A stretch of DNA of 37,808 bases from Chiloscyllium plagiosum (Eukaryota): the NCBI RefSeq assembly GCF_004010195.1, contig NC_057758.1, forward strand, positions 986,562 to 1,024,369, read 5' to 3'. This document shows, piece after piece, positions 1-37,808 of this stretch (position 1 is its first letter; the number at the start of each line of letters is the position of its first letter). A program made the translations under genes and the position numbers. Below the pieces are notes generated by a model. It did not search any database and was not told the DNA's origin. It saw only the letters and a program-made list of their open reading frames with translations.

Positions 1-176
1 ACTGCTCTTGTGTTTTTCCCTGACTCTTCCGAATTAGATTGCTTGCACAGCTTGCAAGGAAAGGCGGTCTGTTCACAGAATTCAGTGAAGTCAGGCTTTC
101 AGCATTAAATTGACTTTAGAAGGTATTAATTTACAGATTTAAGCGTAAATGCTAATTTTGTGCATTTTCAATTACA
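1..176 (-). mobile_element. ERV LTR, U3 end (truncated by window edge); second copy of the LTR at 35506-35950
   Basis: Ungapped alignment to 35775-35950 with 22 mismatches in 176 nt by manual count (~87.5% identity). Similarity stops exactly at the LTR terminus (minus strand TGTAATTGAAAA). No polypurine tract follows, so this is a 5' or solo LTR. Confidence 0.9.
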
Positions 177-617
177 ACGTGGGGCACACAAATCAGGTTT
201 CTAAGATGAATTTTCTCAGAGGATACTGGCAGGAATCTTTGTCTGAACGAGTGAAGACAATTTCAAGTTTTATTATTCCGAATGAGCTGTATCGTTTTAA
301 ATTTTTTCCAAATAGTATGAAAAATACCCCAGCCACATCTCAACGACAAATTAATAAGGTTTTTCCGGATATCCAATTTGTCTCGTGTATATCTATGACG
401 CGGTGAGTTTTAGTCACACGTGGAAGGAACATTTGCAACATGTACTCGAATGTTCAATTGACTTCCGGAGGGAGGTTTGATGATAAACCTAGCTAAGACT
501 GTATATGCCAAAGACCAAGTCACCTTCTTTGGCCATGTTATTGGGCATGGACAAATGGCCTGACGGAATGTAAAAACAAACGGAATTGGGGACTTCTCCA
601 CACCATTGACAAAAGCG
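177..617 (+). mobile_element. Degenerate Ty3/Gypsy (Gmr1-like) reverse transcriptase, middle/3' portion
   Basis: Translates across frameshifts as VG..SKMNFLRGYWQESLSERVKTISSFIIP..LYRFK..MKNTPATSQR, then VYIYD (decayed YIDD) AVSFSHTWKEHLQH, then GLMINLAKT..VTFFGHVIGHG. These are typical Gypsy RT motifs. Confidence 0.9.
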
Positions 618-1116
618 AATGGAGGAATTCAACAACATGCGACCAAAGGAATGGGTGCCCCAGATGGGTGGGTGATGCGAGCGAAGGCCTGGAGGACAGG
701 GAAGGAGTGGAAGCAAGAGGAAAAATGTTAATAAAGAAAATCCGAAATTCATTCTGATCAAACGAGGAACCACTAAGATTTATGTTGTGGTGCTAAAGAA
801 TAAACAATTTATTGCCGACAACAGGAATGTTACTTTTGAATCAACACTAATGCAGTTTTACGGCGATGAGAATGCAAGTGGATGAATGGCCTTTTCATGC
901 TACTGCCAATGGCTTGATGGGAGGCATATACTGATCATTGATGTTGGGAATCAAATAATTCAGCAGACACAATCGGCCGTGTCTCTATCAGAATTCCACG
1001 TTGTCTGCTGAGTGTCTCCCAACTCTGGACCAGAGTCAGCCCGCATAGAGTCTCGTTATGAGTTCAAAAGGTATTCCCTCGTCAATAGTTTCATATCCAC
1101 AGCGGTGATTCGTTTC

Positions 1117-1850
1117 TGTTATGACACGGCGGTTAATCTTACTGTCAATTAAACCAAATACCCAAAACAACTCACCTCACCTCGTAATTTGTTGAAATAA
1201 ATCTGAGTGACAGAGATCTCACGAAACATAACATCAACTTTTTTAAAACCGTAAGTGAATATAAGAAAAAGAACAGCAACTAACCCCTCTACATCTTAAC
1301 TGCTCCAACTCGGTAACAATATATTGATCCAATAAGACACTTACTAAAATTACATCAAATTAATTTCAAAACCACACAGCAGCTGTCGTCTTCGTTATCA
1401 TTCTCATTCCAGTTGAAGATCTCTCTGGATCTACTTCTTCCTTTTTACTGTGAAGATGTTTTACGTGAAAAGATACATTTGATGAGGAGGATTTCAAGTC
1501 ATGGCTCTCCCTTTCTCGATTGCAATTCCTTTGTCTGATTTTCAAAATGCATGCCTTTTCAATATCCCCAACATTGGATTGTCTCATTGGTTCGATGTTG
1601 GCTCAACAATAAATTCAGACTCGATTAAGTTTTACAATCCTGTGGCATGATTTGAACTGACTGGTTAAATTCGAATTATTGACAGAACAGCAACCAACTC
1701 AGATACCGATTTCAAAGCCAAATGTGAACTTAGTTCCATTTTACATGACACTCTGAGACTGGTCTTATCAGCTCCCAGTGCAGAAAAGCATTCACACTCT
1801 CTTAACGGAACAGTACAATCCTCCAACTACACTCAAGAATTCGATAATCA
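1117..1850. mobile_element. Possible solo LTR-like repeat
   Basis: Starts with TGTTATGAC, the same TGTTATG start as the LTR at 30536, and has a degenerate inverted end (GATAATCA) near 1850. Non-coding. No TSD found. Confidence 0.35.
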
Positions 1851-2349
1851 AGGCCAGCAGAGATGGAATACATGATTCACCAATCTTTTCAAATATAAAT
1901 GACGTGGAGAGAGACATAGAGTTTGAAGCAGAGAAAATGAAATTCATTGCTACCATTAAAAAAAACAAACAGAAAACCGATGACAATCTCAAAACAAGCC
2001 TTCAGGATTTCTAGTGAAATATTTATTTAACATTTTCATTTCCTCCACTCGTGCATTTTGTCTTTTTCTTTCTTCTTGCCTCAAATGTTTAAATTCCTCT
2101 GTGTCAGGTCATTTTGAGCTCAGCGTTCAGTGTCGATCAACAAGAGTAGATTCGGGATCACATCAAATCACAACACTGCAACTCGCGAACATATTCATCA
2201 AAGACACGTGAGAGAGAGGGAATGTTGCAAGGCAAATCATTCCTACCACCCAAATAAATCATTCAGTTTCCAAATCGCTAATTATTCATCTGGCCATTCT
2301 CCTAAAGTGCCTTTATGATAGCACAAAGGCTTCAATTATGAAGCTCTTT

Positions 2350-2677
2350 GGGATGCCAATGCAAGCTTTCAAGATTGTTAGTAAGAGTGCTAGGATTGAA
2401 CTGAGGGGAATCTTCTTCACTCAGATTTGAAATGCACCTTCTGGGACAATTATGGTGCGGAATGCAAAGGATGTCTCAAAAGAGAATTGGATATATAATT
2501 AAAAGTGTTGGATTCACAGGGCTTTGAGTAGAGGGTTGGAGAATGTGACCAACTGGGCAGCCCTTTTGGACCCGGTACATTCAAGATGTATGTGACCAAC
2601 TGGGCAGCCCTTTTAGACCCGGTACATTCAAGATAATGTTCTTCTCTCATGGAAAATTCTGTAACTCTATGATTCTA
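2350..2677 (+). mobile_element. Old CR1 LINE 3' end fragment
   Basis: Contains the CR1 ORF2 C-terminal motif (gaggggaatcttcttcactcag; aaaagagaattggat) and ends in a ctctatgattcta microsatellite-like tail. Confidence 0.6.
2543..2634 (+). repeat. 47-bp period tandem duplication (2 copies)
   Basis: atgtgaccaactgggcagccctttt(g/a)gacccggtacattcaagat occurs at 2543 and 2590 with one mismatch. Confidence 0.95.
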
Positions 2678-2689
2678 AAGAGGGAAAGG

Positions 2690-3187
2690 TGCTCATCGGT
2701 TCACAATAGAAATAGGCTTCAGGGATCAGGGATGGAAATTTGTTAGAATAGAAAACTGGTTGAAAAGGTGGCAGCGTTGGGGGAGAGTGGTTCAGGGCCA
2801 GAAGTGGTAAGGGGCTCAGGGGATGATAACTGCAAAATGGTTCTGTTGGTCGGAACTGAAAAGGGTCAGGTGATCTGAAGTGGAAAATGATTAACGGGAT
2901 GTGAACTGGCAATGTATCACGTGTTCTGAATTTTGAGGAATGTATAGGAGTAGAGGAAATTTATGGTTCAAGTGCATGATTCTCTGAAGCTGGACAGGCA
3001 AGTTGAAATCTCGTTAAGAAGGCTTATACTATTTTGTAAAGAGGGGCATAGAGTATAAACCGACAATTCTACATCTCCACAAATCTTTGGCGGACTATAT
3101 TTGAAGTATTATATACAGTTCTTCGCACCTTATTAGCGTTTGAATGTCAAAGCCCTCGAGTCAGTTTGAAGGAGATTTAGTAGAATA
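2690..3187 (+). mobile_element. Highly degenerate CR1 RT fragment
   Basis: Remnants of the CR1 motifs IENWL, VKKAY, RGIEYK, LxYxxQFxAP and RRF. Confidence 0.55.
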
Positions 3188-3278
3188 ATTAGATTCCCTA
3201 AAGTATAGAAACAGGCTCTTCGGCCCAACAAGTCCACACCGACTCTCCAAAGGGTAACCAACCCAGATCCATTCCCTG
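3188..3278 (-). mobile_element. HE1-like SINE 3' fragment
   Basis: ttagattccct..agaaacaggctcttcggcccaacaagtccacaccgac is the reverse complement of the SINE tail seen at 15100-15179, and matches 21142-21210. Confidence 0.8.
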
Positions 3279-3442
3279 ATTGTGAAGGAATTCATTGGAG
3301 AATGCATTAACCTCTGTTTTTTTCAAAATTTGTGAAAGTCTTTCTGAGATTCAATTCTACGTATATCTCCATCCTCATTTATATTCATTTATATTATATG
3401 CATCTAATTTGTTTTTTTTTTACTAAATTCGACTACCCAGGC

Positions 3443-5602
3443 ATAGAACATAGAACATAGAACAGCGCAGTAAAGGCACTTCGGCCCTTGATGTGGCGAC
3501 GTCCTGTGAAACGACTCTGAAGTCCATCTAAACTACAGTAGCCAGTTCTCGCCTTATGTCTATCGAATGTCACTTTAAATGCCATTAAAGTTAAAGACTC
3601 CTCTGGTGCGTTACACGCCCCTATTCCACTCTGAGTAAAGAACCCACCTCTGACATCAGTCCGATATATTTCACCCTTCAATTTGAAGCTCTGCATCCAC
3701 GTGCTCAACATCACTATGCGAGAAAAAGGCTCTCACTATCGACCCGACCCAAATGCTCTTCTGGTGCGTTCAAGTAAGGCACCATTCAACCTTCTTCTCT
3801 CTGATGAAGACTGCCTCTCGATCCTCAGCCGTCCCTCGTGAGACGTTGCCTGCATACCAGGCAACATCCTCGTCAGTCCTCTCTGCACCCTTTCCAAACC
3901 TTCCATTTTCTTCTTATAATGCAATGACAAGAAACATGCACGATTCTTCAAGTGCGGTCACACCAGAATTTTTTAGAGCTGCAGCATGACCTCGTTGATC
4001 CGAAACTCAATTGCTTTCCCAATAAAAGCTATCACGCCGTGTTTCTTCTAAACAATTTTACAAGCCTGTGTGGCAACTTTTCGGGATCGATGAACATTGA
4101 CGCCGAGATCTCTCTGTTCATCTACTTACCAAGAAACTTACCATTAACGTAAAAGTTTATATTCCTGTTACGCCTTCCAGAGTCATTCACTTCACACTTT
4201 TCCGCAGCAAAAACCATTTTCCAAGTCTCAGCCAAGCTCTTCACCTTATATATCTCCCTCTGTCACCTACAACATCCTTCAGCACTATTCACAACTCTGC
4301 CGAATTTAGTGTCATTCGCAAGTTTACTAACCCACCCTTCCAGTATATCATCCAGTTCATTTCTGAAAATGACAAACAGCTATGACACCAAAAAAGATCC
4401 TTGCAGTAACCCCTTAGTAACTGAACTCCAGGATGAACAATTCCCATCAACTACCGATCTCTATCATCTTTCAGCCAGTCAACTGCTTATCCCAATCGCT
4501 AAATATCCCTCAATACCATGCCTTCTTATTTTGTGCAAGTTTACCGTGTTGTCTGTACCTAATCAACTTACTACTTCCCACATGGTTTTTAACCTTTTAT
4601 CGTATAATGTTATGCACCACTTTGCCCACAACACGGGTTAGACTCACTGGTCAACAGTTACCAGGGTTATATCTACTCAATTTCTTGAATACGGGAATAT
4701 CATTTGGTATCCTCCGGTCTTCTGGCACTATTCTTGTAGACAATGGCGATATAAAGATCAAAGGCAAAGACTCTGCAATATCCTCTGTGGCTTCCCAGAG
4801 AATCCTGGCATAAATACCATCTGGCCGAGGGGACTTAACTGTTTTCACATTTTCCATATTTGCTCTAACTCGTCCTTGTGAACATCAATCCCATCAAGTC
4901 TAGTAGCCTGTACCTCAGTATTGTACTCGACAACATTGACTTTTTCCAGTGTGAATGCTGACGAAATATATTCATTTAGCGCTTCCCCTTTATCCTCCGA
5001 CTCTACGCACAAATTCCCACCAGTATTCTTGATTGGCCCTAATCTTACGCTTGTCATTCTTTCATTACTGATGTACCTGGGTTTTCCTTGATCCTACCCA
5101 CCCATGAATTGCCATGCCTCTCCTGGCTCTTATTAGCTCTCTCTTTTGGTCTTTCATAGCTAGCCTGTCACGTCTCATCCTAACATAAACATTGTTCTTC
5201 CTCTTGAAAAGTTATTCCACTTCTTTAAAAAGAAAACACAGTTCCTTCGACCGATAACTTTCTCCCTTCCTGTCCTTCCGCTGTGACACTTGCCGTGCAG
5301 AATGAACCTGTCTCTTTCCATCACCAAAGTAAACATAACAGAATTGTAGTGACTATCACCAACGTGCTCACCGACCTCCAAGTCTAATCATTGGCCAGGT
5401 TCATGACTCAGCACCAATCCGATGTGGCCTCGCCCTTGTTGGCCTGTCCACATACTGTGTCAGGAAACCGTCCTGCACATAGTAGACAAAAACGGACCTT
5501 TCCAAATTCCTTGAACTATATATTCCTAGTCAATGTTTGTAAGTCTGAGGACCCCATAGCAACTACCCTGTCACTCTCGCTCCTATCGGGAATCATCTTC
5601 GG
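3443..5602 (-). mobile_element. Degenerate CR1/HER1 LINE (ORF2 with internal deletions)
   Basis: (ATAGAAC)n tail at 3443-3463. Minus-strand ORF fragments KSPRPDGIYARILWEA, LERVQRGLTRMLPGM and YRTDVRGGFFTQ. Endonuclease remnant GEHVGDSHYNSV. Confidence 0.92.
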
Positions 5603-5663
5603 GAGTTAACTGTCGAGTTAGAGGCTGATTAGAATGTTTTCTTTCAATGCCTAAAATGTTAGA

Positions 5664-6880
5664 CACAGAACATAGAACATACTGCATTACAACGCAGGAG
5701 ATGCCCTTCGGCCCTCGATGTTGTGCCACCCTGTGAAATCAAACTGAAGCCCATTTAACCTACTCTATTTCTTTCTCGTCCATAAACCTATCCAATGACC
5801 ACTTAAATGCCCGTAAGAATGGCGAGTCAACAACGGTTGAGGGAAATGGTTCTCCAACACCACCCACTACTCTCTGAGTAAAGGAACTACCTCTTATATG
5901 TGTCACCCCTCACAAAAAAATCATTCTCCATCGTGATATCCACCAACATCCTCGGAAAAGGGCTCTCACTGACCACTGGATCTAACCCTCTGATTATCAT
6001 ATATGTCACAATTAAGTCATTCCTCAACCTTCTACTCTTAAACGAAAAGAGTCTCAAGTTCCTCAACATTTCTGCATCAGACCTTCCCTCGATACCAAGT
6101 CTGAACCCTTTCCAAAGCTTCCACAACTTTCCTCTAGTGTAGTGACTAGAACTGCACGCAATACGCCACGTGCAGTTGCACCAGGGTTTTGTAGCAGGAC
6201 TTCGTGGATCCGAATGTCGATCCATCTACGAATAAAAGCTGTCACGTCATGTGCCTTCTGAACAACCCGATCAACCTGGATGGCAACTTTGAGGGATCTC
6301 TGTGCATGGACACCGAGATCTCTCTTTTCATCTGCGCGACCAAGAATCTTGCCATTACCCCACTATTCTGCATTCCTGTTACTCCATCCAAAGTCAATCA
6401 CGACACACTTTTCTCCATTAAACACCATTTGCCACCTCTCAACTCAGATCTGCCATCGTCATTCAGCAATATCCACAACTGTACCGATCTTACTGTCTTC
6501 CACAAATTCATTAACTCATCCTTCTTCTCCCTCATCCAGGTCGTTTCTAAAAATGACAAACCCAGTGAACATAGTGGTACATCACTAATAAGTGAACTCC
6601 AGGATGAACATTTACCATCAAACAGCAGCATCTGTCTTCTTTCAGCCAACCAATTTCTGATCCAAACCGCGAAATCGCTCTCAATCCAATGCCTCCTAAT
6701 TTTGTGCATTAGCCTACCATGGGGAAACTTATCAATCGTCTTACTGCAATCTATATACACCACGTCAGCGGCTTTACCCTCATCCACCTGTTTGGTCACT
6801 TGCTCAAAGAACCCAATAAGGTTTGTGAGGGACGACCTACTCTTCGCAAAACTGTGTTGATATCCTTAACCACATTATTC
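5664..6880 (-). mobile_element. Degenerate CR1/HER1 LINE, 5'-truncated
   Basis: agaacatagaacat tail. ORF 6398..6799 reads TKQVDEGKAADVVYIDCSKTIDKFPHGRL..WIRNWL; ORF 5887..6225 has LFSFKSRRLRNDLI. Confidence 0.9.
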
Positions 6881-6987
6881 TAATTGATATAATTATCAAC
6901 AGTTTTATATCTGTATTTGCACACCATCACAATAAAAATTCAAAATCAGCTTCCTGTGATACAAATTTTCTTAAAGTAGTATGAAAT

Positions 6988-8870
6988 ATATAGAACATAG
7001 AAATATACAGCGCAGTACAGGCCTTTGGGCCCTCGATGTTGCGCCGTTCCAAGCCCACCTAACCGACACTAGCCCACTATCCTCCATATGCCTATCCAAT
7101 ACCCGTTTAAATTCCCAGAAAGAGGGAAAGTCCACCACTGCTACTGACAGGGCATTCCATGAACTCACGACTGACTGAGTAAAGAATCTACCCCTAACAT
7201 CTGTCCGATACCTACCATCCCGAAATTTAAAGCTATGCCCCCTCGTAATAGCTGACTCCATACGTGGAAAAAGGTTCTCATGGTCAACTCTATCTAAACC
7301 CCTAATCATCTTGTGCACCTCGATCAAATCACCCCTCAACCTTCTTTTCTCCATTGAAAACAGCCCCAAGTTCCTCAGCATTTCCTCATACGATCTTCCT
7401 ACCATACCAGGCAACTTCCTGGTAAACCTCCTCTGCACCCGTTCCAGTGCCTCCACATCCGACCAAAACTGCACACAATACTCGAGGTGCGGCCGCACCA
7501 GAGTCCTTTACAACTGCAACATGACCTCAGGATTCCGGAACTCAATTCCTCTACCAATAAAAGCCAGTACGCCATATGCCTTCTTCACCGCACTATTTAC
7601 CAGGGTGGCAACTTTCGGATATCTGTGTACATGGACACCAAGATCCCTCTGCTCATCCACACTACCAAGTAACCGACCACTAGCCCAGTACCCCATCTTC
7701 TTGTTACTCTTACCAAAGTGAATCACTTCACACTTACCTACATTGAAGTCCATTTGCCACCTTTCTGCCCAACTCTGCAGCTTATCTATATCCCGCTGTA
7801 ACCTGACACATCACTGTCAACAACTCTACTGACTTTCGTATCATCCGCAAACTTGTTCACCCAACCTTCTCGCCCCTCCTCCAGGTCATTTATAAAAAAA
7901 AGCTATGGTCCCAAAACAGATCTTTGCGGAACACCGGTCGTAACTGCACTGCAAGTTGAACCTTTACCATCAACTACTACCCTCTGTCTTCTTCCAGCCA
8001 GTCAATTCCTAATCCAAACCTCCAACTCACCCTCAATGCCATACCTGCGTATTTTTTGCAGTAGCCTACCATGGGGAACCTTATCAAACGCCTTACTAAA
8101 ATCCATATACACCACATCTACCGATTTACACTCGTCTACCTCCTTAGTCACCTTCTCAAAGAATTCAATAAGGTTTGTGAGGCACGACCTGCCCTTCACA
8201 AAACCATGCTGACTATCCTTGATCACATTATTCCTATCCAGGTGTTCATAAATCCTATCCCTTACAATTCTCTAAGACTTTGCCCACAACAGAAGTGAGA
8301 CTCACCGGCCTATAGTTACTCAGGTTATCCCTACTCCCCTTCTTGAACAAGGGAACCACATTTGCTACCCTCCAGTCTTCTGGCACTATTCCTGAAGACA
8401 GCGAGGACATAAAAACCAAGGCCAATGGCTCTGCAATCTCCTCCCTTGCTTCCCAGAGAATCCTAGGATAAATGCCATCAGGCCCAGGGGACTTTTCTAT
8501 TTTCATCCTTTCCAGAATTTCCAACACCTCTTCCCTACATACCTCAAAGCCATCCATTCTGCTTAATTGTGACTCAGTCTTCACATCGGCAACAATGTCC
8601 TGTTCCTGAGTGAATACTGACGAAAAGTATTCATTCAGTGTCTCCCTAATTTCTTCAACCTCCACACGCAACTTCCCACTACTATCCTTGACTGGACCTA
8701 TTCCTACCCTAGTCATTCTTTTATACCTGACATACCTATAGAAAGCCTTAGGGTTTTTTCTAATCCTACCAACTGAGGATTTTTCATGTCCCCTCCTTGC
8801 TGCTCTTAGCTCTCTCTTCAGATCCTTTCTGGCTACCTTATAACTCTCAATCGCCCCAATTGAACATTCA
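6988..8870 (-). mobile_element. Younger CR1/HER1 LINE, 5'-truncated, frameshifted ORF2
   Basis: Well-preserved motifs KSPGPDGIYPRILWEAREEIA..NYRPVSLTSVVGKVLE, QHGFVKGRSCLTNLIEFFE..YMDFSKAFDKVPH and RPHLEYCVQFWS..ERVQRRFT; tagaacatagaa tail. Confidence 0.95.
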
Positions 8871-9847
8871 AATATTAATATTTGAATGAGAGCTAGGCTT
8901 CCGTCATTCTTTTAAGAAATATTGATGACATTATTTATTCGGGAATGAAGCTAATTGCTTTATTAGAGTGGACTACATTGTTTGAATATCGGTTCTGTTG
9001 AATTTGTCATGTTAATTAATCACATGTATGCAATCAGATACCTCATGCAGCTAAGAAGTATCAAAAACTTCACAGGAAAAAATGTTGTTTCTACTCTGTG
9101 CTTGCAGGAATAGATATGGCAATGGCGAAATTACATACTAGAAAAAAATTGCTACTTTTGGAACCTCCAACGTATTATCAACTACACGCATTTTATTTTA
9201 GTGATATGATGCAAGTGTGCGGTTTTGCAGTATTCTTTAATAGAATTACAATGTTTGCTCGTTGAGATTATTGTATTAATCCATTTAGTTGATTTTTTTG
9301 TTTTCTTCTCCATTAATATAAATATTACAATCCACAGGGTAGGCATCAATTGTATTCTTTCACTACATTGACAATCTTGGATTCACATCTAATCTGATTC
9401 TGTTTAATGCCTAAACCAGCAGATATATCGCCATGACAAATAAAAACTCGCAAGAGACTCTGGGCTTCCAGCAGTGGAGACAGCTCTAGGCACTAAGTGA
9501 ATGAGAGTCGAAGGAAATCAATCATCTTACTTCCAGTTGTCAGGGGGAGTTTTGTTGTGTTATGATTCGTGGTTATGATGTATTCTGTGTTGAACGGAAT
9601 GTATGTCATTGAGTATGAATCTGCAGATTTAGATAATTATCTACTCGAATTAGGTTTTATGCTTGAACCCTAAGTTGATGCACAAATAATGTTGTATATG
9701 TTGTGACCAAGATTATCTCAGAGAGCAGTTGAAGGATGCGTAGTAATAAAGCCCTTTATATCAATTTCTAAATTAATAAACTTTTCAAAAGAGGAGTCAG
9801 AAGTACAAGTCGATCAAGTGATATGTTTTCTCCACAATTAACTCTCC

Positions 9848-10347
9848 NNNNNNNNNNNNNNNNNNNNNNNNNNNNNNNNNNNNNNNNNNNNNNNNNNNNN
9901 NNNNNNNNNNNNNNNNNNNNNNNNNNNNNNNNNNNNNNNNNNNNNNNNNNNNNNNNNNNNNNNNNNNNNNNNNNNNNNNNNNNNNNNNNNNNNNNNNNNN
10001 NNNNNNNNNNNNNNNNNNNNNNNNNNNNNNNNNNNNNNNNNNNNNNNNNNNNNNNNNNNNNNNNNNNNNNNNNNNNNNNNNNNNNNNNNNNNNNNNNNNN
10101 NNNNNNNNNNNNNNNNNNNNNNNNNNNNNNNNNNNNNNNNNNNNNNNNNNNNNNNNNNNNNNNNNNNNNNNNNNNNNNNNNNNNNNNNNNNNNNNNNNNN
10201 NNNNNNNNNNNNNNNNNNNNNNNNNNNNNNNNNNNNNNNNNNNNNNNNNNNNNNNNNNNNNNNNNNNNNNNNNNNNNNNNNNNNNNNNNNNNNNNNNNNN
10301 NNNNNNNNNNNNNNNNNNNNNNNNNNNNNNNNNNNNNNNNNNNNNNN
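9848..10347. other. Assembly gap (500 N)
   Basis: Run of N characters. Confidence 1.
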
Positions 10348-12058
10348 GAGGCATGGCAATTCGTGGGTGGATCGGATCAAGGAAAACCCAGGTATATCAG
10401 TAATGAAAGAATGACGAGCATAAGATTAGGGCCAATCAAGAATACTGGTGGGAATTTGTGCGTAGAGTCGGAGGATAAAGGGGAAGCGCTAAATGAATAT
10501 ATTTCATCAGTATTCACACTGGAAAAAGTCAATGTTGTCGAGTACAATACTGAGGTACAGGCTACTAGACTGATGGGATTGATGTTCACAAGGAGGACGT
10601 TAGAGCAAATATGGAAAATGTGAAAATAGGCCAGATCGTATTTATGCCAGGATTCTCTGGGAAACCACAGAGGATATTGCAGAGTCTTTGCCTTTGATCT
10701 TTATATCGTCATTGTCTACAAGAATAGTGCCAGAAGACCGGAGGATAGCAAATGATATTCCCGTATTCAAGAAGTTGAGTAGACATAACCCTGGTAACTA
10801 TTGACCAGTGAGTCTAACCCCTGTTGTGGGCAAAGTGGTGCATAACATTATACGATAAAAGGTTAAAAACCATGTGGGAAGTAGTAAGTTGATTAGGTAT
10901 AGACAACATGGTAAACTTTCACAAAATAAGAAGGCACGGTATTGAGGGATATTTAGCGATTGGGATAAGCAATTTACTGGCTGAAAGATGATAGAGATCG
11001 GTAGTTGATGGGAATTGTTCATCCTGGAGTTCAGTTACTAAGGGGTTACTGCAAGGATCTTTTTTGGTGTCATAGCTGTTTGTCATTTTCAGAAATGAAC
11101 TGGATGATTTACTGGAAGGGTGGGTTAGTAAACTTGCGAATGACACTAAAGTCGGCAGAGTTGTGAATAGTGCTGAAGGATGTTGTAGGTGACAGAGGGA
11201 GATATATAAGGTGAAGAGCTTGGCTGAGACTTAGAAAATGGTGTTTGTTGCGGAAAACTGTGAAGTGAATGACTCTGGAAGGCGTAACAGGAATATAAAC
11301 TTTTGCGTTAAAGGTAAGTTTCTTGGTAGGTAGATGAACAGAGAGATCGCGGCGTCAATGTTCATCGATCCCGAAAAGTTGCCACACAGGCTTGTAAAAT
11401 TGTTCAGAAGAAACACGGCGTGATAGCTTTTATTGGTAAAGCAATTGAGTTTCGGATCAACGAGGTCATGCTGCAGCTCTAAAAAATTCTGGCGTGACCG
11501 CACTTGAAGAATCGTGCATGTTTCTTGTCACTGCATTATAAGAAGAATATGTAAGGTTTGGAAACGGTGCAGAGAGGACTAACGAGAATGTTGCCTGGTA
11601 TGCAGGGAAGGTCTCACGAGGGAAGGCTGAGGGTTACGAGGCAGTCTTCATCAGAGAGAAGAAGGTTGAAAGGTGCCTTACTTGAACGCACCAGAAGAGG
11701 CTTTGGGTCGGGTGGATAGTGAGAGCCTTTTTCTCGCATAGTGATGTTGAGCACATGGATGCAGAGCTTCAAATTGAAGGGTGAAAGATATCGGACTGAT
11801 GTCAGAGGTGGGTTCTTTACTCAGAGTGGAATAGGGGCGTGTAACGCACCAGAGGAGTCGTTAACTTTAATGGCATTTAAATTGACATTCGATAGACATA
11901 TGGCGAGAACTGACTACTGTAGTTTAGATGGACTTCAGAGTCGTTTCACAGGACGTCGCCACATCAAGGGCCGAAGTGCCTTTACTGCGCTGTTCTATGT
12001 TCTATGTTCTATGCCAGGGTAGGCGAATTTAGTAAAAAAAAAAAAATTAGATGCATAT
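10348..12058 (+). repeat. Inverted duplicate of 3396-5120 (decayed CR1 plus ~45 bp of 3' flank)
   Basis: Reverse-complement match. The decayed ORF translations are nearly identical (11741..12022 vs 3433..3714 differ at 4 of 93 aa). The copies share internal deletions and the flank gaatttagta(a)n-ttagatgcatat. Confidence 0.95.
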
Positions 12059-14600: not shown

Positions 14601-14629
14601 AAAGAAACAGGCGCTGAGTTCAAAGAGTA

Positions 14630-24400: not shown

Positions 24401-24594
24401 CTTAAAGAAGACAGAGTGTGGTCGTTTATGGAAAATATTCATCCTGGAGCTCAGAGACCAGTGGTGTGCCGGTAGGATCTGTTCTAGGGCCAGTGCTGTT
24501 TTTCATTCGTATGAATGATCTGGAGGAGGGCATAGATGGATGAGTTGGTAAATCTGCGGTTGACACTAAAGTCGGGAGGGTTTTTGGTCACTGC

Positions 24595-27430: not shown

Positions 27431-29105
27431 ATCATCGCAAAAGATGCAGCAATCTATTTCATCGCTTCCTGTTAGATCCTTGGGTCTACCCTATCTGGCC
27501 CAGGTGACTCAGCTATGGTCTTTTTTTCTTTCGAAATTCGCAGCACATCCTCTTTCTTAACATTAAGCTGTTTCAGCATTTCAGCCCATTTCACGCTACC
27601 CTCACAAACGACAGGATCCGTCTCACGAGTGAATACTGAAGCAGAGTATTCATTACGGATCACTCCTAACTCCTCTAACTCCATGCTCAAGGTCCTTCCA
27701 CTATACCTGATCGACCCTACCCTCAGTCTATTCACCCTCATATTCCTCGCATGAGTGTGACATATCTTGTGGTTTTTCTTAATCGTGCCCTGTCTCGCTC
27801 TCCTAAATTTATTCTTCAGTTCCTCCTGGGCTACCTTTTACCCTGTAGATCATTGCCTGATCGTTGCTTCCTCAAACTTAAGTCAGCTTATTTCTTCCTC
27901 TTGACTAGATTTTCCGCATCTCTTATCCAAAGTAATGTTTCATAGTTTAAGCCTAATAGAATTAAAATTCCCACTCCCTAATTTTCCATGTCATCAGCTC
28001 CTATCCCTAGCCATGACTATAATAATGGTCAGAGAGGTGCGGTCGCTATCACCAAAATACTCTCCCAACGACCTGCTACGTTATCAAGCACAAAATCTAA
28101 TATGACCTCCCCTCCAGTCAGTCAATCTACAAAGTGAATTAGAAATTATTGCTGCGCTCAGCTGACAAAATCTGCTCCATCTAAACTATTTGAACTGTGT
28201 AGGTTCCGATCGATATTGGGAAGTTGAAGTCATCCATAACAGCAAAAACGTTACATCTACACCTTTACAAAATCTGCCTCCCAATCTGCTTCTCTGTATC
28301 TCTGTTGTTATTGGGGGTTCGATGGAAAACTCCCAGTCAAGTGGGGGCTCGTTTCCTGTTTATCTCTTACTCTCATGATGTGTCTTAGACAAACCCACCT
28401 CAATCACCTCTCTTTTATTTAATTCGTTCATGAGATGAAGTTATCACTGAAAAGGCAGCGTTTATTGCCCATTCCTAATTTCCCAGGCAGTAGTTAGGAG
28501 ATAACCATATTGATGTGGGTCTGGAGTCATACGTAGACCAGAACAGGTAAGGATGGCAGATTATTTCCCTAATGGACACTGGTGAACCAGGTGTTGTACT
28601 ATCTACAATTAGCAATGTCACTCCTCAATGTCTTTTACTTCCCTCCCTATTCCTTTTGAAACACCTAATTCCAACTAACATTCCTGCTCCTCTAATATCC
28701 AGGTCTCCGTAATGACCACAAAATTGTAGCTCCAAGTACTGGTCCATACTTTACTTTAATCACCCTTATTATTGACACTTTTTGCGTTAAAGTACACACA
28801 CTTCAAACTATCACACTGACTGTAACATGCCCTATCAACTCTGTTATTCTTCACAAACTCTCTGCACCCTGTATCTGCCTGTTTGCTCGCTACGTCACAC
28901 TCTGATTCATTGCTCTGGTTTCCCGCCAAACGAGCTGAAACCATCCCAATGAGCTCGAGCAAACCTCACTCGCAGGGTATTGGTACTCCTCCAGTTCAGA
29001 TGTAACTCCTGCTTCTGTTATAGATCCCATATAGCCCTGAAAATATTCCAATCTGACATATCTATAGTCCTCCCTCCTACATCAGCTCTGCAGCCAGTTT
29101 TTCCA
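27431..29105 (-). mobile_element. Degenerate CR1 fragment (ORF1 end, endonuclease, linker)
   Basis: Minus-strand fragments LKCVYFNAKSVNNKGD and EYSASVFTRE..ESPGPDRVDPRI. Confidence 0.85.
28415..28610. repeat. Short interspersed repeat of uncertain class inserted in the CR1 endonuclease region
   Basis: tttattgcccattcctaatt..gtgggtctggagtca..ggtaaggatggcag interrupts CR1 homology and resembles a common shark repeat (from recall, unverified). Confidence 0.5.
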
Positions 29106-29329
29106 ACATCTTCACAATAGTTGAGTAACGTTATTGCATTTTCTCTGCATCTGTCCTGAAATAACTGAAAATTTGATATGATTCTCTTCACACGAATGAT
29201 ATCCTGTCGAGGAAACAGTCCATATCAAGTCGATCGATGGCATACCCAAATTCTGATACTCAGAGAACCAAGGAAGTTAAACGAACTGAGAAGTTGGACT
29301 TAAATAGCTCTGTCCTTGTTTTCATCTCC

Positions 29330-29800
29330 GGTGACAAACTCTCCGTTCACATTGCCCTTAGACTCTAAGTCCTGACTACATTTGAATCCGCTGTTTCTTT
29401 TTTTATCTCTTTCGCCGCTTCCTGCGAACTCCCTACTATTTCTTCACGCTCTTTAGCTTTTTCCTCCTCTGTTTCGTATTCACGCTGTCCCTGCTGGAGT
29501 CGCTCAGTCCATCCAAAGTTCCTAACTTTCTCCACACCTCTATTCCTGTAGCCCCGTGTCATCTTTCTTCTTTCCTCGTTTTCTCTTCATCATTGTATCC
29601 GTTAATTTCAATTCCTCTATCTGCCTGTTGCTCTTTCTCGCTCCCTCCTACTTATGGCTAACTTATGTATTTTCATCTTTCTCACTACTTCGATGCCTTC
29701 CTTCTCTCTTGCTTCTACTCTCTCCCATTTGACCTCCTTATCTCCGTATCTCTCTGTGCCTGAGTAATGCAACACATTCCTCACAGCCCTGTAGTTTGGA
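29330..29800 (+). repeat. Pyrimidine-rich low-complexity tract
   Basis: Strong C/T bias, e.g. tctttcttctttcctcgttttctctt. Confidence 0.6.
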
Positions 29801-30039
29801 TTTCCCGCTGTGCCATCTCGAATGTGTTTCTTCAGTGGACCAGGTTCGTATGTGTGAAGAGCCATGTATTCTACCTAACTCACTCATTTAGGTGTCGGTG
29901 AACCTTCCCTGTCCAAATTTATAGTTACATGACTAATCATCTGCCTTCCCATATACAATGAAAAGTGGACAATTTCGCACTTATTCACAAAATAGAGGAT
30001 CCATAGTACATTCACTCACTCAGTCTTCACATGCCTACC

Positions 30040-30235
30040 TATGTATTTCTATCTCTGCACAAATACATGTCTGTGCGTCTGTAGCGGTGCAAATGTGTAT
30101 GGTTCTATCTGTTTCTGCATGTCAGCTTTAGCATGTTTGTGCATGTGTCTGTATGAGTGCACGTCTGTGTGTGTCAAAACGTCTATACGGGTATGTTGCC
30201 ATGCATTGTGTACGTTACAGTTGTGTATAAATTCA
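30040..30235 (+). repeat. Decayed (TG)n-like microsatellite
   Basis: Runs of tgtctgtgcgtctgt, atgtgtat and gtctgtgtgtgt. Confidence 0.6.
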
Positions 30236-30244
30236 TGAGTGGCT

Positions 30245-30533
30245 GGGTTCGGATGAACACCCAGGGTCTTTTCTTCCAAGGGTGTGGGGATACGAAACTA
30301 GAAAGCATCGGCAGAAGTTGAAAATTAAAAAGGAGCTGAGTGGTAGTTCTTTAACACCGACAGCAGTAACTGTATGTAAGGAGCTGCCAGATGAAATGTC
30401 AGAGGTGGGTACATTTTCAACACTTAAAAGGCATCTCGATTGATATATGTATAGGAAATGCTTAGACAGATAGGAGCCAAATGCTGGAAACGGAATGGGT
30501 CAGATCGAGATGCCTGTTGGGGCGAACGTATTG
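30245..30533 (+). mobile_element. Old CR1 3' fragment
   Basis: cagggtcttttc..ttctttaacaccga..aaaaggcatctcga..ccaaatgctgg follows the CR1 ORF2 end and 3'UTR pattern. Confidence 0.7.
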
Positions 30534-30721
30534 TTTGTTATGTTGATGGTACTCCTGAAACAAGGTGATTCTGTACTTGGCCTTTTATTTCAAAAGATCT
30601 CGTAAATATAGACGTGCCGCAATGTCTGAACTGGCTAACTTAATAATGGATAACAGATGCTATCTAACTCAACTATTCAGAATAGACGTTAAGGTTTTTA
30701 TTTAAAACAGTTGCAAAATTG

Positions 30722-31190
30722 ACAATATACAATAGGTGCAGGAGTAGGCAATTCTGCCCTTCGATCCTGCACCACCATTCAATATGATCATGGCTGATCA
30801 TGCTTAATCATGCTTAATCAGTATCCTGTTCCTGCCTTATCTCCATAACCCTTGATTCCACTATCCTTGAGAGATCTATCCAAATCTTTCTTAAATGAAT
30901 CCAGAGACTGGGCATCCACTGCCCTCTGGGGCAGAGCATTCCACACAGCCACCACTCTCTGGGTGAAGACGTTTCTCCTCATCTCTGTTCTAAATGGTGT
31001 ACCTGCATTTTTAAGCTGTGTCCTCTGGTTCAGCACTCACCCATCAGGGGAAACATGTGTCCAGAGTGTCCAATCCCTTAATAATCTTATATGTCTCAAT
31101 CAGATCCCCTCTCAGTCTTCTAGACTCAAGGATATACATGCCCAGTCGTTCCAGTCCTTCAGCGTAAGGTCGTCCCGCCATTCCAGGAAA
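30722..31190 (-). mobile_element. CR1 3' fragment inserted in the Gypsy LTR
   Basis: Minus-strand fragments ESRRLRGDLIETYKIIKGLD and FRTEMRRNVFTQRVVAVWNALPQ; acaatatacaat tail. Confidence 0.9.
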
Positions 31191-31611
31191 TGAAAGGGGA
31201 GTAGCCAGTATAGCCAGTTCAGTGTATCTTCTAGCTTTGATTTTGTTTTTAGCTTTGGCACAAACAAGCAGCTCCATGCTTATCCAGCCTATCTCTAACA
31301 TCTCTTTCCTGTAAGAACCTCTGTTGATATATATTTTTTTTTGCTAAGCTGTGTGTTAATGTGATGTTGCAGGAAATCGGAACATATATTTGTTAAGTTG
31401 AAGTTTCTTGTCGGTTGGGTTCTTAAATAGATATCTGATCCCAAATTAGGTTTTCATTTGTTTATGTGCAATTAACTTCCGTTTTGTGTCGAAAGGAATG
31501 GTTTTACCAACTGTGTCGGTCCTGGAATACAACTAGAACAACTAGAAATTTTAGTTTCTGGGCTCCCTTCTTAAATGTTTTGTGGGGGGTCTGGCCTGAT
31601 CCATTACAGAC

Positions 31612-31629
31612 TGGGCGCTCGTCCATGAC
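31612..31629 (+). promoter_or_regulatory. Primer-binding site, tRNA-Pro type
   Basis: TGGGCGCTCGTCCATGAC matches the known PBS-Pro TGGGGGCTCGTCCGGGAT at 14 of 18 positions and lies 3 nt after the LTR-terminal CA. Confidence 0.75.
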
Positions 31630-33044
31630 TTCTTCCAAATTGGTTGCAGGGTTGGTGAACTCAAAGGCAGCGTCTGGTAGATGATAGTGTTTCTGGAATT
31701 GACAATCTTGCTGGAGATGGAGTTATCTTCGTTTGTAGGAAACGTAGAAATAATTACCGTAATAACTCAGCATTTAAATTTTATGGAACTGTCATTGAAA
31801 CCTTTGGAGAAGGCTAAAATTCAATTAAAACTAAACAGCTTGAGTATGAAACAAAAGCAAAGGAAAGTAAAATAAAGAAACTAAACTGTCTGAATTACGA
31901 TTAGTAACAGAAGAAAGAGCAAAATAATCAATGAAAAACCCGAGCAGAACGAAAACACAGAGGAGTAGAAGGAAAGAAGAATGATACAGTGAACTTCATA
32001 GATTGACTCTTGCACAATAAATTCAGCACGAGTAATGGAGATGAAGGCATAGTGAAGGTTAGCTTAGTTGTGAAGAGAGTGAGAATGTGCAAAGCGATTG
32101 CAGACAAAGTCCTGGTGGGGATCAGGTAAAATACATTCAAGTCTTCCCTAAATTTGATGACCAAGACATGGACGCCATTTCATTTTCTTTGAGAAAGTGG
32201 CTAAACAAATAAAATGGCCACAGACCATGTGGGTTTTGTTAATCCAAACAAAACTTGTAACTAGAGTTAGTGAGGTATTTACGTCAATATGAGAGGAAGT
32301 ATCTTTGGCCTATGAGGGGATGACGAACGCCACCTTCAATGCAAATGATGACAGACGTTTCAGAAATCTAAGGAGGGATCCTGGTCAAACCAACAATGAG
32401 TTTTCAAGGAGCAAACAAAGTAAAATTGCTAAGTGGATAAGTGCATGAAAAATAGAGCAAACATTTGACTTTTAGAGAGACGATAATTTTGGAGGAGTTC
32501 GAAAATTCACTTCCGGAGGTTTTGAGAATGCATGTGGAAGAACAGAGAGTTAAAATAGTAAGATCAACAGCTAAAATAAATGATGTGGATGAGTTGCTCT
32601 TTAAATCAAAGTTTAGCTACCTCATGTGGTACGGAAAAAGTATATTTTGGTGAAGAAAATATCATTAACTGACCACACAGTTCAAAAGTAACCCTTGAAA
32701 GGGAAATAAATATTTCAAATAGCTCCGATGTTTGCACTGCAATGAAATAGGCGACGTGAAATAACACTGTTGTGGCTTAGAAAAAAGCACTGGAAAGATG
32801 GATATAGAAGAAAAAAAAACATATAGCATTGAATTTTGTGGAACAGTAATGGAAGGTCAGTGGAGGCCAAAAAGCTGCACCAGAATGTACAACCTGGCCA
32901 GAGGTTGATAAAAGAGGAAGTGCCAGTTCTTCGTAAAGCATATACTAGCGAAGGAACAGTTTACTCGCATAGGGCCAGGAGCAGCAGTTAAAGAGTGTTC
33001 AATATTAAGCGATACCAAGTTCCTCTCAATCTTTGATGTTGAAG

Positions 33045-33556
33045 GGTTGTGTACCGTTCTGGTCACCACATCATAGGAAGGATGTGGATGTTTTGGAAAG
33101 AGTACCGAGAAGATTTACTAGGTTTCTACCTGGAATAGAGGGAAGGTCTTTCGAGGAAAGGCTGAGGGGTCTGAGGCTGTTTTCGTTGGAGGGAAGGTTG
33201 AAAGGTCACTTAATTGAGACATACATGAAAATCAGAGGGTTAATAGGGTAGACAGTGAGAACACCTTTTTTCCACAGATGGCAATGGCTAGCACGAGGGG
33301 ACATAGCTTTAAATTGAGGGGTGAGATATATGGGCCAGATGTCACAGGAAGTTTCTTCAGTCAGAGTGTAGTGGGTGCGTGTAATGGCTTACCTGCAATA
33401 GCAATAGACTCGCCAACGTCATTGACATTTAAATGTTCACTGGAAAGCATATGGATGAAACTTGAGTGCTGTATGTTAGATGAGCTTCAGACTGGTTTCA
33501 CAGGTTAGCACAACATCGAATGTCGAAAGCCTGTACTTCGCTGTAATGTTCTATCT
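33045..33556 (+). mobile_element. CR1 3' fragment inserted in the Gypsy protease region
   Basis: CVPFWSPHHRKDVDVLERVPRRFTR and TRGHSFKLRG; tail gctgtaatgttcta. Confidence 0.92.
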
Positions 33557-35505
33557 TCAAAGAGGAGATATGTACTTGTGAAGGACGATTGACATAGAAA
33601 TTATGAGTAACTGGAATTCACGTTCAGATAAGAAGAGTTCAATTATTCGCAGTGCTGTTAGAGTATCGAGTGAAGAGTACATAAGTGATGCCACGAGTAC
33701 TGGACAAACTCTCAACTCAGGAATACAATTTGTCTTTGACAACGATATAGCTGATTCACAGGTAAGATTGCTGCCTATTGCGGTTGAAAAGCCAATTGAA
33801 AGTCTGGCAACTGGGGCATTAAAGGAATCCTTTACTGGGATTTTTCCTGACTGTGTAACAACGAGGTCACAAATTTAACAGTTGAAACAGGAAAAAACAA
33901 AGAGTAAAGACAGGAAATTTGAAGTGAAATTATAATAGATCCTGCTGAACCAGGTGGCTGAGACAAAAGAGGAGATTGACAACGTAGATATCTTTAGTTC
34001 AGAGAGATTAACTGACTTACAACAGAAAGATGAAAATGTGTAGGAATTACATCAAACGTTATATATAGAAAAAAAACACTGAATGCATCTCTGAGTGCTA
34101 CTACGCTAAAAGTCGGTGTGGTATCTTCAGCCATCATCTAATTAGGTCTAGGTGTAGTTCAGAGGTTCCTCATGTCGTACTGCCAGTGGGCGATAGAAAG
34201 AAGAGCTTGGGGGTTGCACTTGAACTCCCACTGGAGATCACTTCAGTGTTAAAAAAAATGTCAAGCTGAGAAACGAAAACATTTTAAATGCTGAGATTGC
34301 ACAAGAATGTCGGTGAATTTTGCCAGACAGGACATACATGTCAGGCATTGGAAACGCAACGACAGAAATCAAAGCCACACCATTCATACGTATTCCTGCA
34401 TTTGGCCAACATTTGTCGAGAGTCTTAATTGATTGTGCAAGATTTCTACATTAAATGAAGAGTGGGAATCAGCAGTTGTTAACACTAATGGATGCGTCCA
34501 CTGGATTTCAGTATGCAATATCACAGTCCAATGGATTATAGAGGAGATACTCAAACGTTTTACCAGTTATGGAGTACCCACGGGTAAATAACAACAACGG
34601 GTAAATTTCACATTAACGTTTTTGAAGTAAGTTCTGGACAGCCGAGGAATAAAACAATTCAAATCTACTGCATACCATCCAGAACCGCTGGAAGCAGTAG
34701 GAAATTTGCATCAAACATTAAAGACCAGGTTGAGGCCTTACAGTCAATTCGATTCAGACGATTGGAATTAAATAATTCCGTTTTTTACTTTTGCCAGCAG
34801 TGATGCTGCAAGAAATTGTTATTGCTGCTTCAAGTGGTATGTGAATCTTTATAAAGAAGGCTTAGTGGACGATTTTAAGTGGAAAGGAGATTAATGAGTT
34901 GAAGTGTTTGGTAAGGACTTCAGACAGATGGAAATTGTGCATTGTGTCATGCGAATATGCTCAGATAGCATTATGGCAGGGAAGGAAAGCAAAGGGAGTT
35001 CATGCTTCTTGTTAAAATACTGAGTGAAAAACAAAGTTCAGAGGATTTTCAATTGGGCATTCCTCGACTTAAATTGGACAATGAGGACGTTGTCATGTGA
35101 TGTGTTAATTTTCAGAGGAAAATCGACTGAACGAGGTTTTGTTATTGCGGGAAGGGGGCGGGGGGCGTGAGAGGTGTATGTGCACATAATCTGGGATGTA
35201 ATAAACTAATTCTCCACGATTTAGAGAAAGGAAATGCTGATCCTATTAAGCAACGTCTTTAGCGAATTAATCCTCTAAATTTGGTGGTGTTTCAAAAGGA
35301 GAATGAACGCATGCTGCAAGATAACGAATCAATGTGAATTGCAGTGGCTGGAATTCAGCATTAATAATGGTGCCAACATCAGATGGTAACCAACGGTCAT
35401 GTGTGAACTGTCACAAAGTCAGTTACAGAGTCCCATTCGGTTGATGCTATTACAAAGGATGATTTGGATGCGATTCCAAGTTTAAAAGACATTATTGAAT
35501 AGGTT

Positions 35506-35950
35506 TGTCGTGGAAATTAAATTGACTCGACTCAACTATTAGCAAGATCCACCAAACGAGCTTTATTAATTGTAACCTCTGCATTGCAGAGGGGCCACAC
35601 GCACTTGACAAAAATGCGTTGTGCAAGGGCCCCGAGTATCATTCATATGTTTCCTTGATACCTTACTTCGCTCAGCCTTATCTCACCTCAATGACAATCA
35701 GCTTGGGAACAGCTCGAGCCCTTTTCCACAGAAGGAGTTGTTTTCCCATTCCTTCACTGTTGAAAAAAACTGCTCCTGCTCTTGTGTTTTCCCCTGACTC
35801 TGCCGAATTAGATTGTTTGCAAAACTTGCAAGGCCAGGCGGTCTGTTCATAGAATTCAGTGAAGTCAGGCTGTCTGCATCAAATTGACTTAGGAAGATAT
35901 TATTTAACAGATTTAAGAGTAAATATTAATTTTGTTCATTTTCCATTACA
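35506..35950 (-). mobile_element. ERV 3' LTR, 445 bp, complete
   Basis: Terminal inverted repeats TGTAATGGAAA / TTTCCACGACA on the minus strand. AATAAA at 35562-35567 (minus). Directly preceded by a polypurine tract; second copy at 1-176. Confidence 0.9.
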
Positions 35951-35962
35951 TTTCCCCGTTTT
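35951..35962 (-). promoter_or_regulatory. Retroviral polypurine tract
   Basis: Minus strand AAAACGGGGAAA abuts the LTR TG. Confidence 0.8.
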
Positions 35963-36029
35963 GTCATTTTATGACGACAGGGACAACAACCAAAAAAAGC
36001 CAGATTTTGTAAAAATACGGAGCCAAATA

Positions 36030-36730
36030 AATAAAACTCAGCGATCAAGACAGCTGTCTTCGTTGAAAGGAGCATTTTATGCGGTCGCAGCCAACTCTTT
36101 GCTTTCCAATTTTTCCTCCTGAAGTCTTTCACCATGATACAGACTTCAGGTTTTAGATCGTGCAGCTTCCCTTCTGCTGGTTGGGGTCGTGCTGCTTTCA
36201 CTTGATTCTGTATTTCAGACAAAAGTGCAGAGAGTTTCAAAAAGTAACGCAACATCTCATCCTCACAATGGCCTGTTATCTGTTTTACCTTAGGATTCGG
36301 GCCAATTCCTGTGTTGGGCGGCCTACCAAACAAAATCTCAAACAAGCTGAGATTAACTCTTCCTAGAGCTCATATACATTAGCACAATTGGAAGTGCTTT
36401 TGTCCATGCCACCCCGAGTTCCTCACATTTTGTCAATTTATATTTAAAGGTAGCATTTTCCCTTTCCACTGCCCCACCACTCGCTGGGTGGTAGGCACAG
36501 TGCTGTATCATGTTTATTCCCAAATAATCACGGATCTGTTATCAGGCATTACTGGCAAATGGTGTCCCATTGTCACTACTAAGCCTTTCAGGGATGATCC
36601 TGTATTTACCAAAAAAGGTAACTGAGGTATCTTCCACATATCAGATAGAGGTAGGCATTGACTTATACGCATCATTATTGTCCTGAATATATGGTACACA
36701 CTCTGCAATCTCAGCGCTCAATATGGGGGT
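36030..36730 (-). pseudogene. pol: Class I (epsilon/gamma-like) ERV integrase remnant
   Basis: IPERLSSDNGTPF, HCAYHPASGGAVERENATFKYKL, WTKALPIVLMYM, FEILFGRPP and C-terminal VKDFRRKNWKAKSW..LLSTKTAV. Confidence 0.9.
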
Positions 36731-36859
36731 GGGACATGTTTCAGTGCCCGTAACGTGAGTAGAAGAGATTAGCATAAGCGAGTCTTCGTTGCCAAGCATA
36801 AAGTAAAGAGGCGTACCTGTACCTCATGAGCTGCCCAACTCCACCTCAGCCTTCCCCTG

Positions 36860-37808
36860 TCAGTCACACTGCTCTCCAGCCTTCTGGACAAATTGACGCT
36901 ATCTGTGTTGGCACTGTCTCGCCCAACGGTCCATTGCTCCCCAAACAAAGTACACATATGCCAGCGCATCTACATATGCCAGATCTACATATGCCAGATC
37001 TACATATGCCAGCGCATCTTCCTCTCTCTTTTTCGCAACACCTGCCTCCTACGGCTGGGCCACCATCTGCATCAGAATTAGCTGCGCTTATGTGCTTGCT
37101 GTTCCATCTTTCATTTCCTCTTATCCTTCTCTTGGGTTAGCATTTTTTCTGCATGTATCACATGTTGTTCTATGAAATTCTGCTTTTCCATGGCCCAGGT
37201 AATACATCTTCTTCCCTATTTCGGCCTTCATTCCACTGATCCTCAGATGTGCTTCAACTGGTGTGATTTTTGCCGCCGTTATGTCGTCGGGTGAGAAGCG
37301 TAAGGTACTGGGACACTGTCTCAAGTTCCCGTTGTTTACAAATTGCAATTTTGGTCATGTCCATTCGCACTGGGAATGCCTCCCAGGCGGTCGCCAGCGC
37401 AGCAATAAAAGCATTAAAGTCTCTGTTCTGCTCCACTTGCGGGTTGCCTACTGTGGTATGGATGTTTGCGGTTGGCCAGTTATACTTCTCCTGGGCTTCT
37501 TGGTCCAATATGTTTCGGGTACGAGATGCTACCAGTGATTCAGTGGACCCTGAAGTGGCGGCCGCTGACGTGGTACCTTCGTCAGCTGGATCTCGGAGGG
37601 GGGCTGTAGGTCTCGGAGGGCAGTCATCAAGATCAGGATCTGAAACAGAATTAAGATACTGTACAACTTTGTTTGGTTGTTTTCCGCGCAAGTCTGCATG
37701 TGCGCTGGTGTGTGTCCATGTATTTGATCTACCCTTTACTTGAGATTTCCTTTCCCTGATATCAGCCTAAGCCTTCCACATGTTATAAGCACTCCAATTC
37801 ACAGGTTC
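36860..37808 (-). pseudogene. gag: ERV gag remnant (capsid C-terminal/MHR region), runs off the window end
   Basis: EAFPVRMDMTKIAICKQRELETVSQYL resembles the major homology region (Q...E....Y). It is followed by a frameshifted ..SGMKAEI.. segment and lies upstream of IN on the same strand. Confidence 0.75.
36954..37019 (+). repeat. Tandem repeat of 18/15/15/18-bp units
   Basis: acatatgccagcgcatct, acatatgccagatct x2, acatatgccagcgcatct. Confidence 0.95.

Follow-up and report, generated by a model that had tools for sequence, protein, structure and literature searches.

The retroelement insertion and its host

The window analysed here is the whole 37,808-bp stretch of Chiloscyllium plagiosum contig NC_057758.1 (C49 below) at C49:986562-1024369, bounded at both ends by runs of N and with one 500-N gap inside. 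It carries the remains of a Gypsy-type retroelement interrupted by an endogenous retrovirus (ERV), together with a broken G protein-coupled receptor (GPCR) gene and a receptor pseudogene. The sequence resembling reverse transcriptase (RT) ends at 35505, where a long terminal repeat (LTR) begins, and picks up again at 177 behind a second piece of LTR (positions 2-176 match 35776-35950 at 88% over 175 bp, E 3e-58). Junctions at 176/177 and 35505 had been claimed in an earlier note on this DNA, and the LTR match and the resumption of the RT confirm both. In a gap-free copy described below (copy A), the LTR matching 1-176 runs on as a full LTR beside a primer site, and a polypurine tract lies beside the LTR at 35506, which makes this a minus-strand element with its 3′ LTR at 35506 and its 5′ LTR at 1-176. 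A tRNA gene matching the primer site, which we take to be that of tRNA-Pro, was searched for and none was found.

The 5-mers at the two junctions had been read as a decayed 5-bp target-site duplication (TSD), and this is borne out by the empty site in three uninterrupted relatives of the host element, which is AGGTG in two and AGATG in one. Among six dispersed kin of the ERV, 5-bp TSDs are perfect in two (CACTC and TTCTT), agree at three of five letters in one and are unreadable in three. With two LTRs with TG...CA ends, a TSD, a polypurine tract and a primer site, the inserted element is, as far as its sequence tells, a class I-type ERV. Its kin have the order gag-protease (PR)-RT-RNase H-integrase (IN) with an integrase C-terminus of murine leukaemia virus (MLV) type; the natural frames of three of them match RNase_H, rve and MLVIN_C, protease and RT fall below the Pfam cut-off, and the gag-region frames of these three gave no Pfam match. 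No Pfam family was matched by the ERV frames in the window, where the ERV labels come from DNA alignment to the kin, and about 1.8 kb of pol present in the kin is missing near 36597. None of the six kin has an env-sized interval between integrase and 3′ LTR, the integrase end adjoining that LTR at about equal spacing in all six. Loss of env is frequent among ERVs. A 15-bp tandem repeat of 3.7 copies lies within the ERV gag region at 36954-37012.

Dispersed relatives of the host RT match RVT_1. Three relatives chosen by their right half all have the left half directly upstream and collinear, so the two RT halves of the window belong to one family, where the earlier note had allowed that they might come from two. 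In both of the host-element relatives for which the gene order was read, the integrase precedes RT and RNase H on the same strand. We take this integrase-first order to be the defining feature of Gmr1-like Ty3/Gypsy retrotransposons.

Copies of the insertion and structure of the block

Copies of the insertion were sought with the RT remainder (query 177-620, best 40 of 2748 candidates scored) and with the left junction (best 40 of 954 scored). Among the scored RT matches four stand at 93-100% and the other 36 at 75-78%. The four are copy B, at the window start; copy C, to which the window belongs from 10348 on and whose RT remainder lies past the window end at C49:1025689; copy A, at C49:935214 and inverted; and copy D, composed of unplaced contig C97872 and C49:1044206. 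All six pairs of these RT remainders are 3.1-4.9% apart, compared with 0.74-1.23% for three allele-like pairs, as would be expected of paralogs and not of alleles; read depth supports this weakly. The left junction is whole at three places: in the window, in contig C92806 (97%) and at C49:428876 (87%), within an old paralog at C49:412-439 kb, about 560 kb from the window. Table 1 gives the features of the window and of the related receptor loci.

Table 1. Features of the window, in window coordinates unless C49 is given; psi1 to psi3 are receptor-family pseudogenes.
Feature	Position	Strand	Remarks
Module B, right part	1-3384	+	part of a ~7.7-kb module (C49:981733-989945), length by copy A coordinates
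ERV 5′ LTR part, copy B	1-176	-	88% to 35776-35950; remainder of LTR in N gap left of window
TSD, right copy (ACGTG)	177-181	+	identical in 4 of 4 right junctions (B, C, A, C97872)
Gypsy-type host RT remainder, copy B	177-617	+	93-96% to three other copies, 75-78% to 36 dispersed relatives
Rearrangement junction	3385-3395		11-nt local duplication joining module B to inverted stretch
Inverted upstream part of block	3396-9847	-	CR1 remains and psi1; 95% to C49:968488-976299 and window 10348-12058
psi1 receptor pseudogene	8900-9847	+	C49:968k 97%, C89844 95%, allele-like C20914 99%, old paralog 81%
500-N gap	9848-10347		most likely a scaffolding join; true size and orientation unknown
Upstream part of block, copy C	10348-13464	+	CR1 remains; 94-97% to C49:974642-977701 and C97872
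16.6-kb block found only in copy C	13465-30071		13464 joins 30072 directly in C49:977701 and C97872
Broken two-exon class A GPCR, shark family auto-named GPR139	16973-18731	+	7tm_1 match; splice sites
Block resumes	30072-35505	+	91-97% to C97872 and C92806, 83-85% to old paralog
Gypsy-type 5′ part	~33600-35505	+	within resumed block
TSD, left copy (AGGTT)	35501-35505	+	AGGTT in C92806 too; AGATG in old paralog
ERV 3′ LTR, copy C	35506-35950	-	purine-rich tract adjoining
Internally deleted ERV body	35926-37808	-	integrase C-terminal remnant 35926-36369, gag-region remnant 37254-37766
psi2	C49:930k, 1031k, 1048k		receptor-family pseudogene copies
psi3	C49:964k, C91354		receptor-family pseudogene copies
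Receptor pairs	C49:1058k/1128k; C49:875k/879k		875k/879k lies on either side of a 500-N join, perhaps as a false duplicate

A 5′ LTR and an RT remainder had been predicted to lie downstream of the window, and they are present at C49:1025555-1026133 (RT from C49:1025689), 1.2 kb past its end. The sized gap in this copy is 1185 N, against 1033 bp at the same place in gap-free copy A, which indicates that copy C is a whole insertion in normal order. Since copy C has its own right junction downstream, the junction at the window start is not a misplaced half of the element at the window end, and the two junctions of the window belong to two different copies, not to one as the earlier note had it. 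The right junctions of B and C are offset by 38,951 bp in direct orientation. The copies include non-repeat DNA, with blocks of 1.5-6 kb at 92-97% identity chained over about 20 kb; being longer than 1 kb and more than 90% identical, they have the properties of segmental duplications.

The LTRs give the order of events. At the site, 3′ and 5′ LTRs differ by a Kimura two-parameter (K2P) distance of 0.10-0.12 (about 10-12%), the old paralog differs from the young 3′ LTRs by 0.10-0.11, and the young copies differ among themselves by 0.025-0.058. In an LTR tree of 18 rows the six near-complete LTRs of the site form one clade (100/100) and cluster by 5′ or 3′ end across copies, not by copy, while in four of the six dispersed kin both LTRs pair. 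The distances and the tree suggest that the ERV inserted first, that one duplication followed shortly thereafter, and that the younger burst of copies is of later date. LTR pairs of the six dispersed kin are only 0.033-0.090 apart; the ERV family was therefore still active after the insertion at the window site.

The copies are partial and lie in both orientations: A and the stretch 3396-9847 are inverted, and B, C and D are direct. Modules A and B share a derived junction that truncates the ERV, and module B has neither the 3′ LTR nor the left junction. Position 1 is preceded by a gap, beyond which come about 1.7 kb of ERV interior and, farther upstream, unrelated DNA common to copy A only. 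The Gypsy 5′ half (window 33601-35505), which had been predicted upstream of the window, has no match in the 120 kb before it (C49:866562-986561). Complete units in a single orientation, as a head-to-tail array would have, were not found among these copies.

The block at 13465-30071 also finds no room in the old paralog, and a single contig from another animal spans its right junction, by 45 bp. No close match was found to three stretches of it that were searched (15600-17300, 17800-19400 and 28600-30100); these searches gave no close donor. It includes frames at 24918-26600 that resemble what we take to be a Penelope/GIY-YIG-type retroelement remnant. Six rearrangement junctions could be read. 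Those read join unrelated sequences. Three have microhomologies of roughly 8, 4-6 and 3 bp; of the others, one has the 11-nt local duplication, one has 1 bp and one has an unknown partner. From these letters, the joints would have arisen by microhomology-mediated template switching or end joining and not by LTR-LTR crossover.

The assembly itself sets limits on this map. Six of 19 N runs in the C49 DNA examined are exactly 500 long, and such gaps are most likely scaffolding joins, leaving the 38,951-bp offset and the order and orientation across gaps unproven. Contig C97872 ends exactly where C49:1044206 starts after a 500-N gap (unit coordinates 1084|1085), an indication that scaffolding has removed genuine sequence from the cluster. 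Its segment C97872:20001-22471, sought as proof that C and D are adjacent, had no match at 88% or above in the DNA examined. Searching for sequence that would extend the contig past 9847 yielded paralogs and one short contig, none of which bridges the gap. The 14 sequencing runs listed include no long reads.

Read depth was taken from raw reads of three runs from three other animals (0.54x expected each) over window 22000-35499. Five of 30 bins were low in repeats and used; 25 were set aside, including some that were low too (27400-27849 and 28750-29199, which sit within older repeats of the single-copy block). Within the block unique to copy C, 29200-30099 shows 1.0x and 1.2x single-copy depth (about 11 reads in two bins), and three bins in the duplicated part show 4.8-8.1x, values that are upper bounds inflated by dispersed repeats. 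Near-identical contigs, which are suggestive only, have depths of 9-10.6 in the single-copy block (five contigs) and 19.5 and 23.3 in the duplicated part (two). Depth thus agrees weakly with the assembly. A contig with a word depth of 39.9 (30328-30731) was not used as copy number because it overlaps a very high-copy repeat. This short repeat occupies 30550-31449 and exceeds 2000-fold depth per run at 30550-30999.

Receptor genes and pseudogenes

The window GPCR has exon 1 at 16973-17042 and exon 2 from 17842, and carries five frameshifts and two internal stops relative to an intact relative at C49:453k. Its next best matches are at 75% in protein (150 of 3763 candidates scored) and 75-78% in DNA (40 of 1130 scored), its upstream region has diverged partial matches only, and its block is missing from three other copies (C49:977701, C97872 and the old paralog). 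The intact relative is a 335-codon frame on the minus strand at C49:453445-454449. It is 80% identical to a protein from zebra shark and has, about 4-5 kb away, a similar upstream region. The earlier note expected further GPCR copies at similar spacing; other family members (psi1, psi2, psi3 and the receptor pairs) are indeed duplicated, but the window GPCR has no close copy.

Disabling lesions are common to the copies in all five recently duplicated receptor sets, and five psi2 lesions are common even to the old paralog. Only C-terminal shared lesions were counted for psi1, whose N-terminal half aligns poorly (64% to the reference). An apparent shared frameshift at codon 149 was not counted, because it sits at a run of T and is compensated in one of the copies. 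The shared lesions suggest that this layer of duplication added no working receptors. Between C49:866.6 and 1164.4 kb there are 15 family loci, including one frame of more than 300 codons and one 263-codon frame cut by a gap; these two open loci have no close copy among the loci examined. Dead genes are not significantly over-represented among the duplicates (chance 0.22 given that two of ten ancestral loci are intact). With the window GPCR broken and uncopied and all five duplicated sets sharing lesions, the amplification of the receptor family that had been suggested for this duplication is not supported.

The family labelled GPR139 is very large: each of the 150 candidates scored, out of 3763, matches a 126-aa piece, and many lie in open frames of more than 300 codons. 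The best 120 protein matches of the intact neighbour comprise 119 named ones, all from sharks and rays and most auto-named probable GPR139, and one nameless, which marks the DNA as of elasmobranch type. High similarity to GPR139 itself, above that to other class A receptors, was not found, and judged by these comparisons the label is not one of orthology. Searches of the literature at the level of titles, on GPR139 in cartilaginous fishes and on elasmobranch-specific GPCRs, returned no work on this family. The family is not named in the parts we had of bioRxiv 10.1101/2025.06.08.657570 or PMC11979771, and supplementary tandem-cluster lists of the former may cover this cluster. A paucity of GPCRs in cartilaginous fishes is described in the available part of PMC8455134, and GPR210 is placed near GPR139/142 in that of PMC6504862.

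Two further duplications lie nearby. C49:1050675-1066648 and 1107303-1136833, alike at 92-97%, belong to a second family of duplicates, which includes a pair of broken receptors and a long array of low complexity. C49:872444-876242 and 876743-880407 are direct duplicates at 91-97% across a 500-N join, contain a broken receptor and may be real or false.

Origin of the copies and parallels in other gene clusters

We consider it very probable that the right and left junctions seen in the window come from different copies, both descending from a single old ERV insertion that was multiplied by repeated partial segmental duplication. Overall, the locus most likely represents an ordinary mosaic segmental duplication in a birth-and-death cluster. 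What stands of the earlier interpretation is the multiplication of a single insertion through duplicated host DNA; the tandem unit and the GPCR amplification do not stand. Our proposed history begins with the class I-type ERV in the RT, with its 5-bp TSD and LTRs now about 10-12% apart. An early duplication would have given the old paralog, 12-15% diverged, and a later burst would have given A (inverted), B, C, D and C92806, about 2-5% apart. A and B have a common breakpoint inside the ERV, and the ~7.7-kb module B is set against an inverted piece of another copy; the letters at the junctions point to the microhomology-based joining proposed above. By parsimony copy C would have gained the 16.6-kb block with the window GPCR afterwards, and the shared lesions suggest that the carried receptor genes were dead before they were copied.

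Several points weigh against this history. The assembly is fragmented, so that order and orientation across the 500-N joins are uncertain and some copies could be tandem, and the inversion junction at 3384/3396 is known from the assembly alone. Depth is weak, with the small read number in the single-copy bins, repeat inflation in the other bins and the GPCR outside the range covered. Exceptionally divergent alleles of a single locus could account for two of the copies, and two of the six junctions have at most 1 bp of microhomology or an unknown partner.

It is possible, though doubtful, that breaks within the ERV itself set off serial duplications in the receptor cluster, which would make it a breakage hub. 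Of about ten mapped breaks, three that belong to independent rearrangements (the old-paralog deletion, the A/B truncation and the C92806 join) fall inside about 3.5 kb of ERV in an inferred block of about 50 kb. This excess is biased, since the copies were found by ERV-junction queries, and no working gene is seen amplified. If the ERV were such a hub, the growth of the giant shark receptor clusters would be due to modules joined by microhomology and anchored on old proviruses, and not to gene-to-gene unequal crossover.

An assembly artefact, with contigs mis-ordered or two haplotypes of one locus laid side by side, is improbable. The region does have its 19 N runs, six of them exactly 500, copy D is split between C97872 and C49:1044206, and haplotype-like overlaps at about 99% occur nearby. 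Against this, the right junction of copy C itself is present 1.2 kb downstream, reads cover the duplicated part at well over single-copy depth (an upper bound), and four distinct right junctions are more than two alleles can provide and are 3-5 times more diverged than the allele-like pairs. Mis-ordered contigs, the alternative offered in the earlier note, cannot alone explain these junctions.

We regard as very unlikely the head-to-tail array of the earlier note, a unit of at least 36 kb with Gypsy element, ERV and window GPCR that would amplify the receptor family. It would account for the direct orientation of B and C, for D following C in the same orientation, and for the receptor-family sequences psi1, psi2 and psi3 that the duplicated block does hold. 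However, B measures only ~7.7 kb and has no left junction, 3′ LTR or Gypsy 5′ half, A and 3396-9847 are inverted, and the B-C offset crosses a 500-N join; moreover, the window GPCR is without a close copy, its block is absent from three copies, and the duplicated receptor genes share their lesions. Independent insertions of one ERV family at the same site of different Gypsy copies are hardly credible, as although both families are dispersed through the genome, the flanks are common over 5-20 kb including non-repeat DNA and the LTRs group by end across copies.

Read as a single insertion multiplied by segmental duplication, the ERV is a dated internal marker of turnover in a very large, poorly described shark receptor cluster, and it orders the insertion, the early duplication and the burst at about 2-5% divergence. 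The recent duplication copied only broken genes, so that raw family counts overstate the working repertoire, and order and spacing on the chromosome are unreliable at 500-N joins.

The elements involved have known relatives. Class I-related ERVs are widespread in fishes according to the available parts of PMC6001957 and PMC4422223. The window ERV family shares the LTR-gag-PR-RT-RNase H-IN order with fish class I (gamma/epsilon-related) ERVs such as clade Mu (PMC6001957, in part), and class I fish ERVs (PMC6001957) and chimaera ERVs (PMC4422223) likewise have the MLV-type integrase C-terminal domain and old, degraded copies, as far as the available parts go. Unlike class I fish ERVs, the window copy has lost much of pol and its six kin have no env-sized interval. 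The host has the integrase-first order of Gmr1-like Gypsy elements in two of two relatives, and the window copy, interrupted by the ERV, survives as a degraded remnant. Human GPR139 (PDB 7VUG) has the class A seven-transmembrane fold family in common with the shark receptors, but similarity is slight, at 29.6 bits for one member, and for another human GPR139 is absent among 60 listed of 67 matches.

For the process itself, already well known from the major histocompatibility complex (MHC) and other clusters, the closest parallel we have is the MHC class I alpha block, whose duplicons are marked by HERV16/ERV3-16A3 (PMC7848197, seen in part). There too an old ERV insertion is repeated through a multigene cluster by segmental duplication and marks its history. 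In the available part of PMC7848197 HERV16 is a site of unequal crossover, whereas the shark junctions join unrelated sequences, half of them with short microhomology. In the shark, unlike in the MHC alpha block, the receptor genes found in the recent duplicates are all broken.

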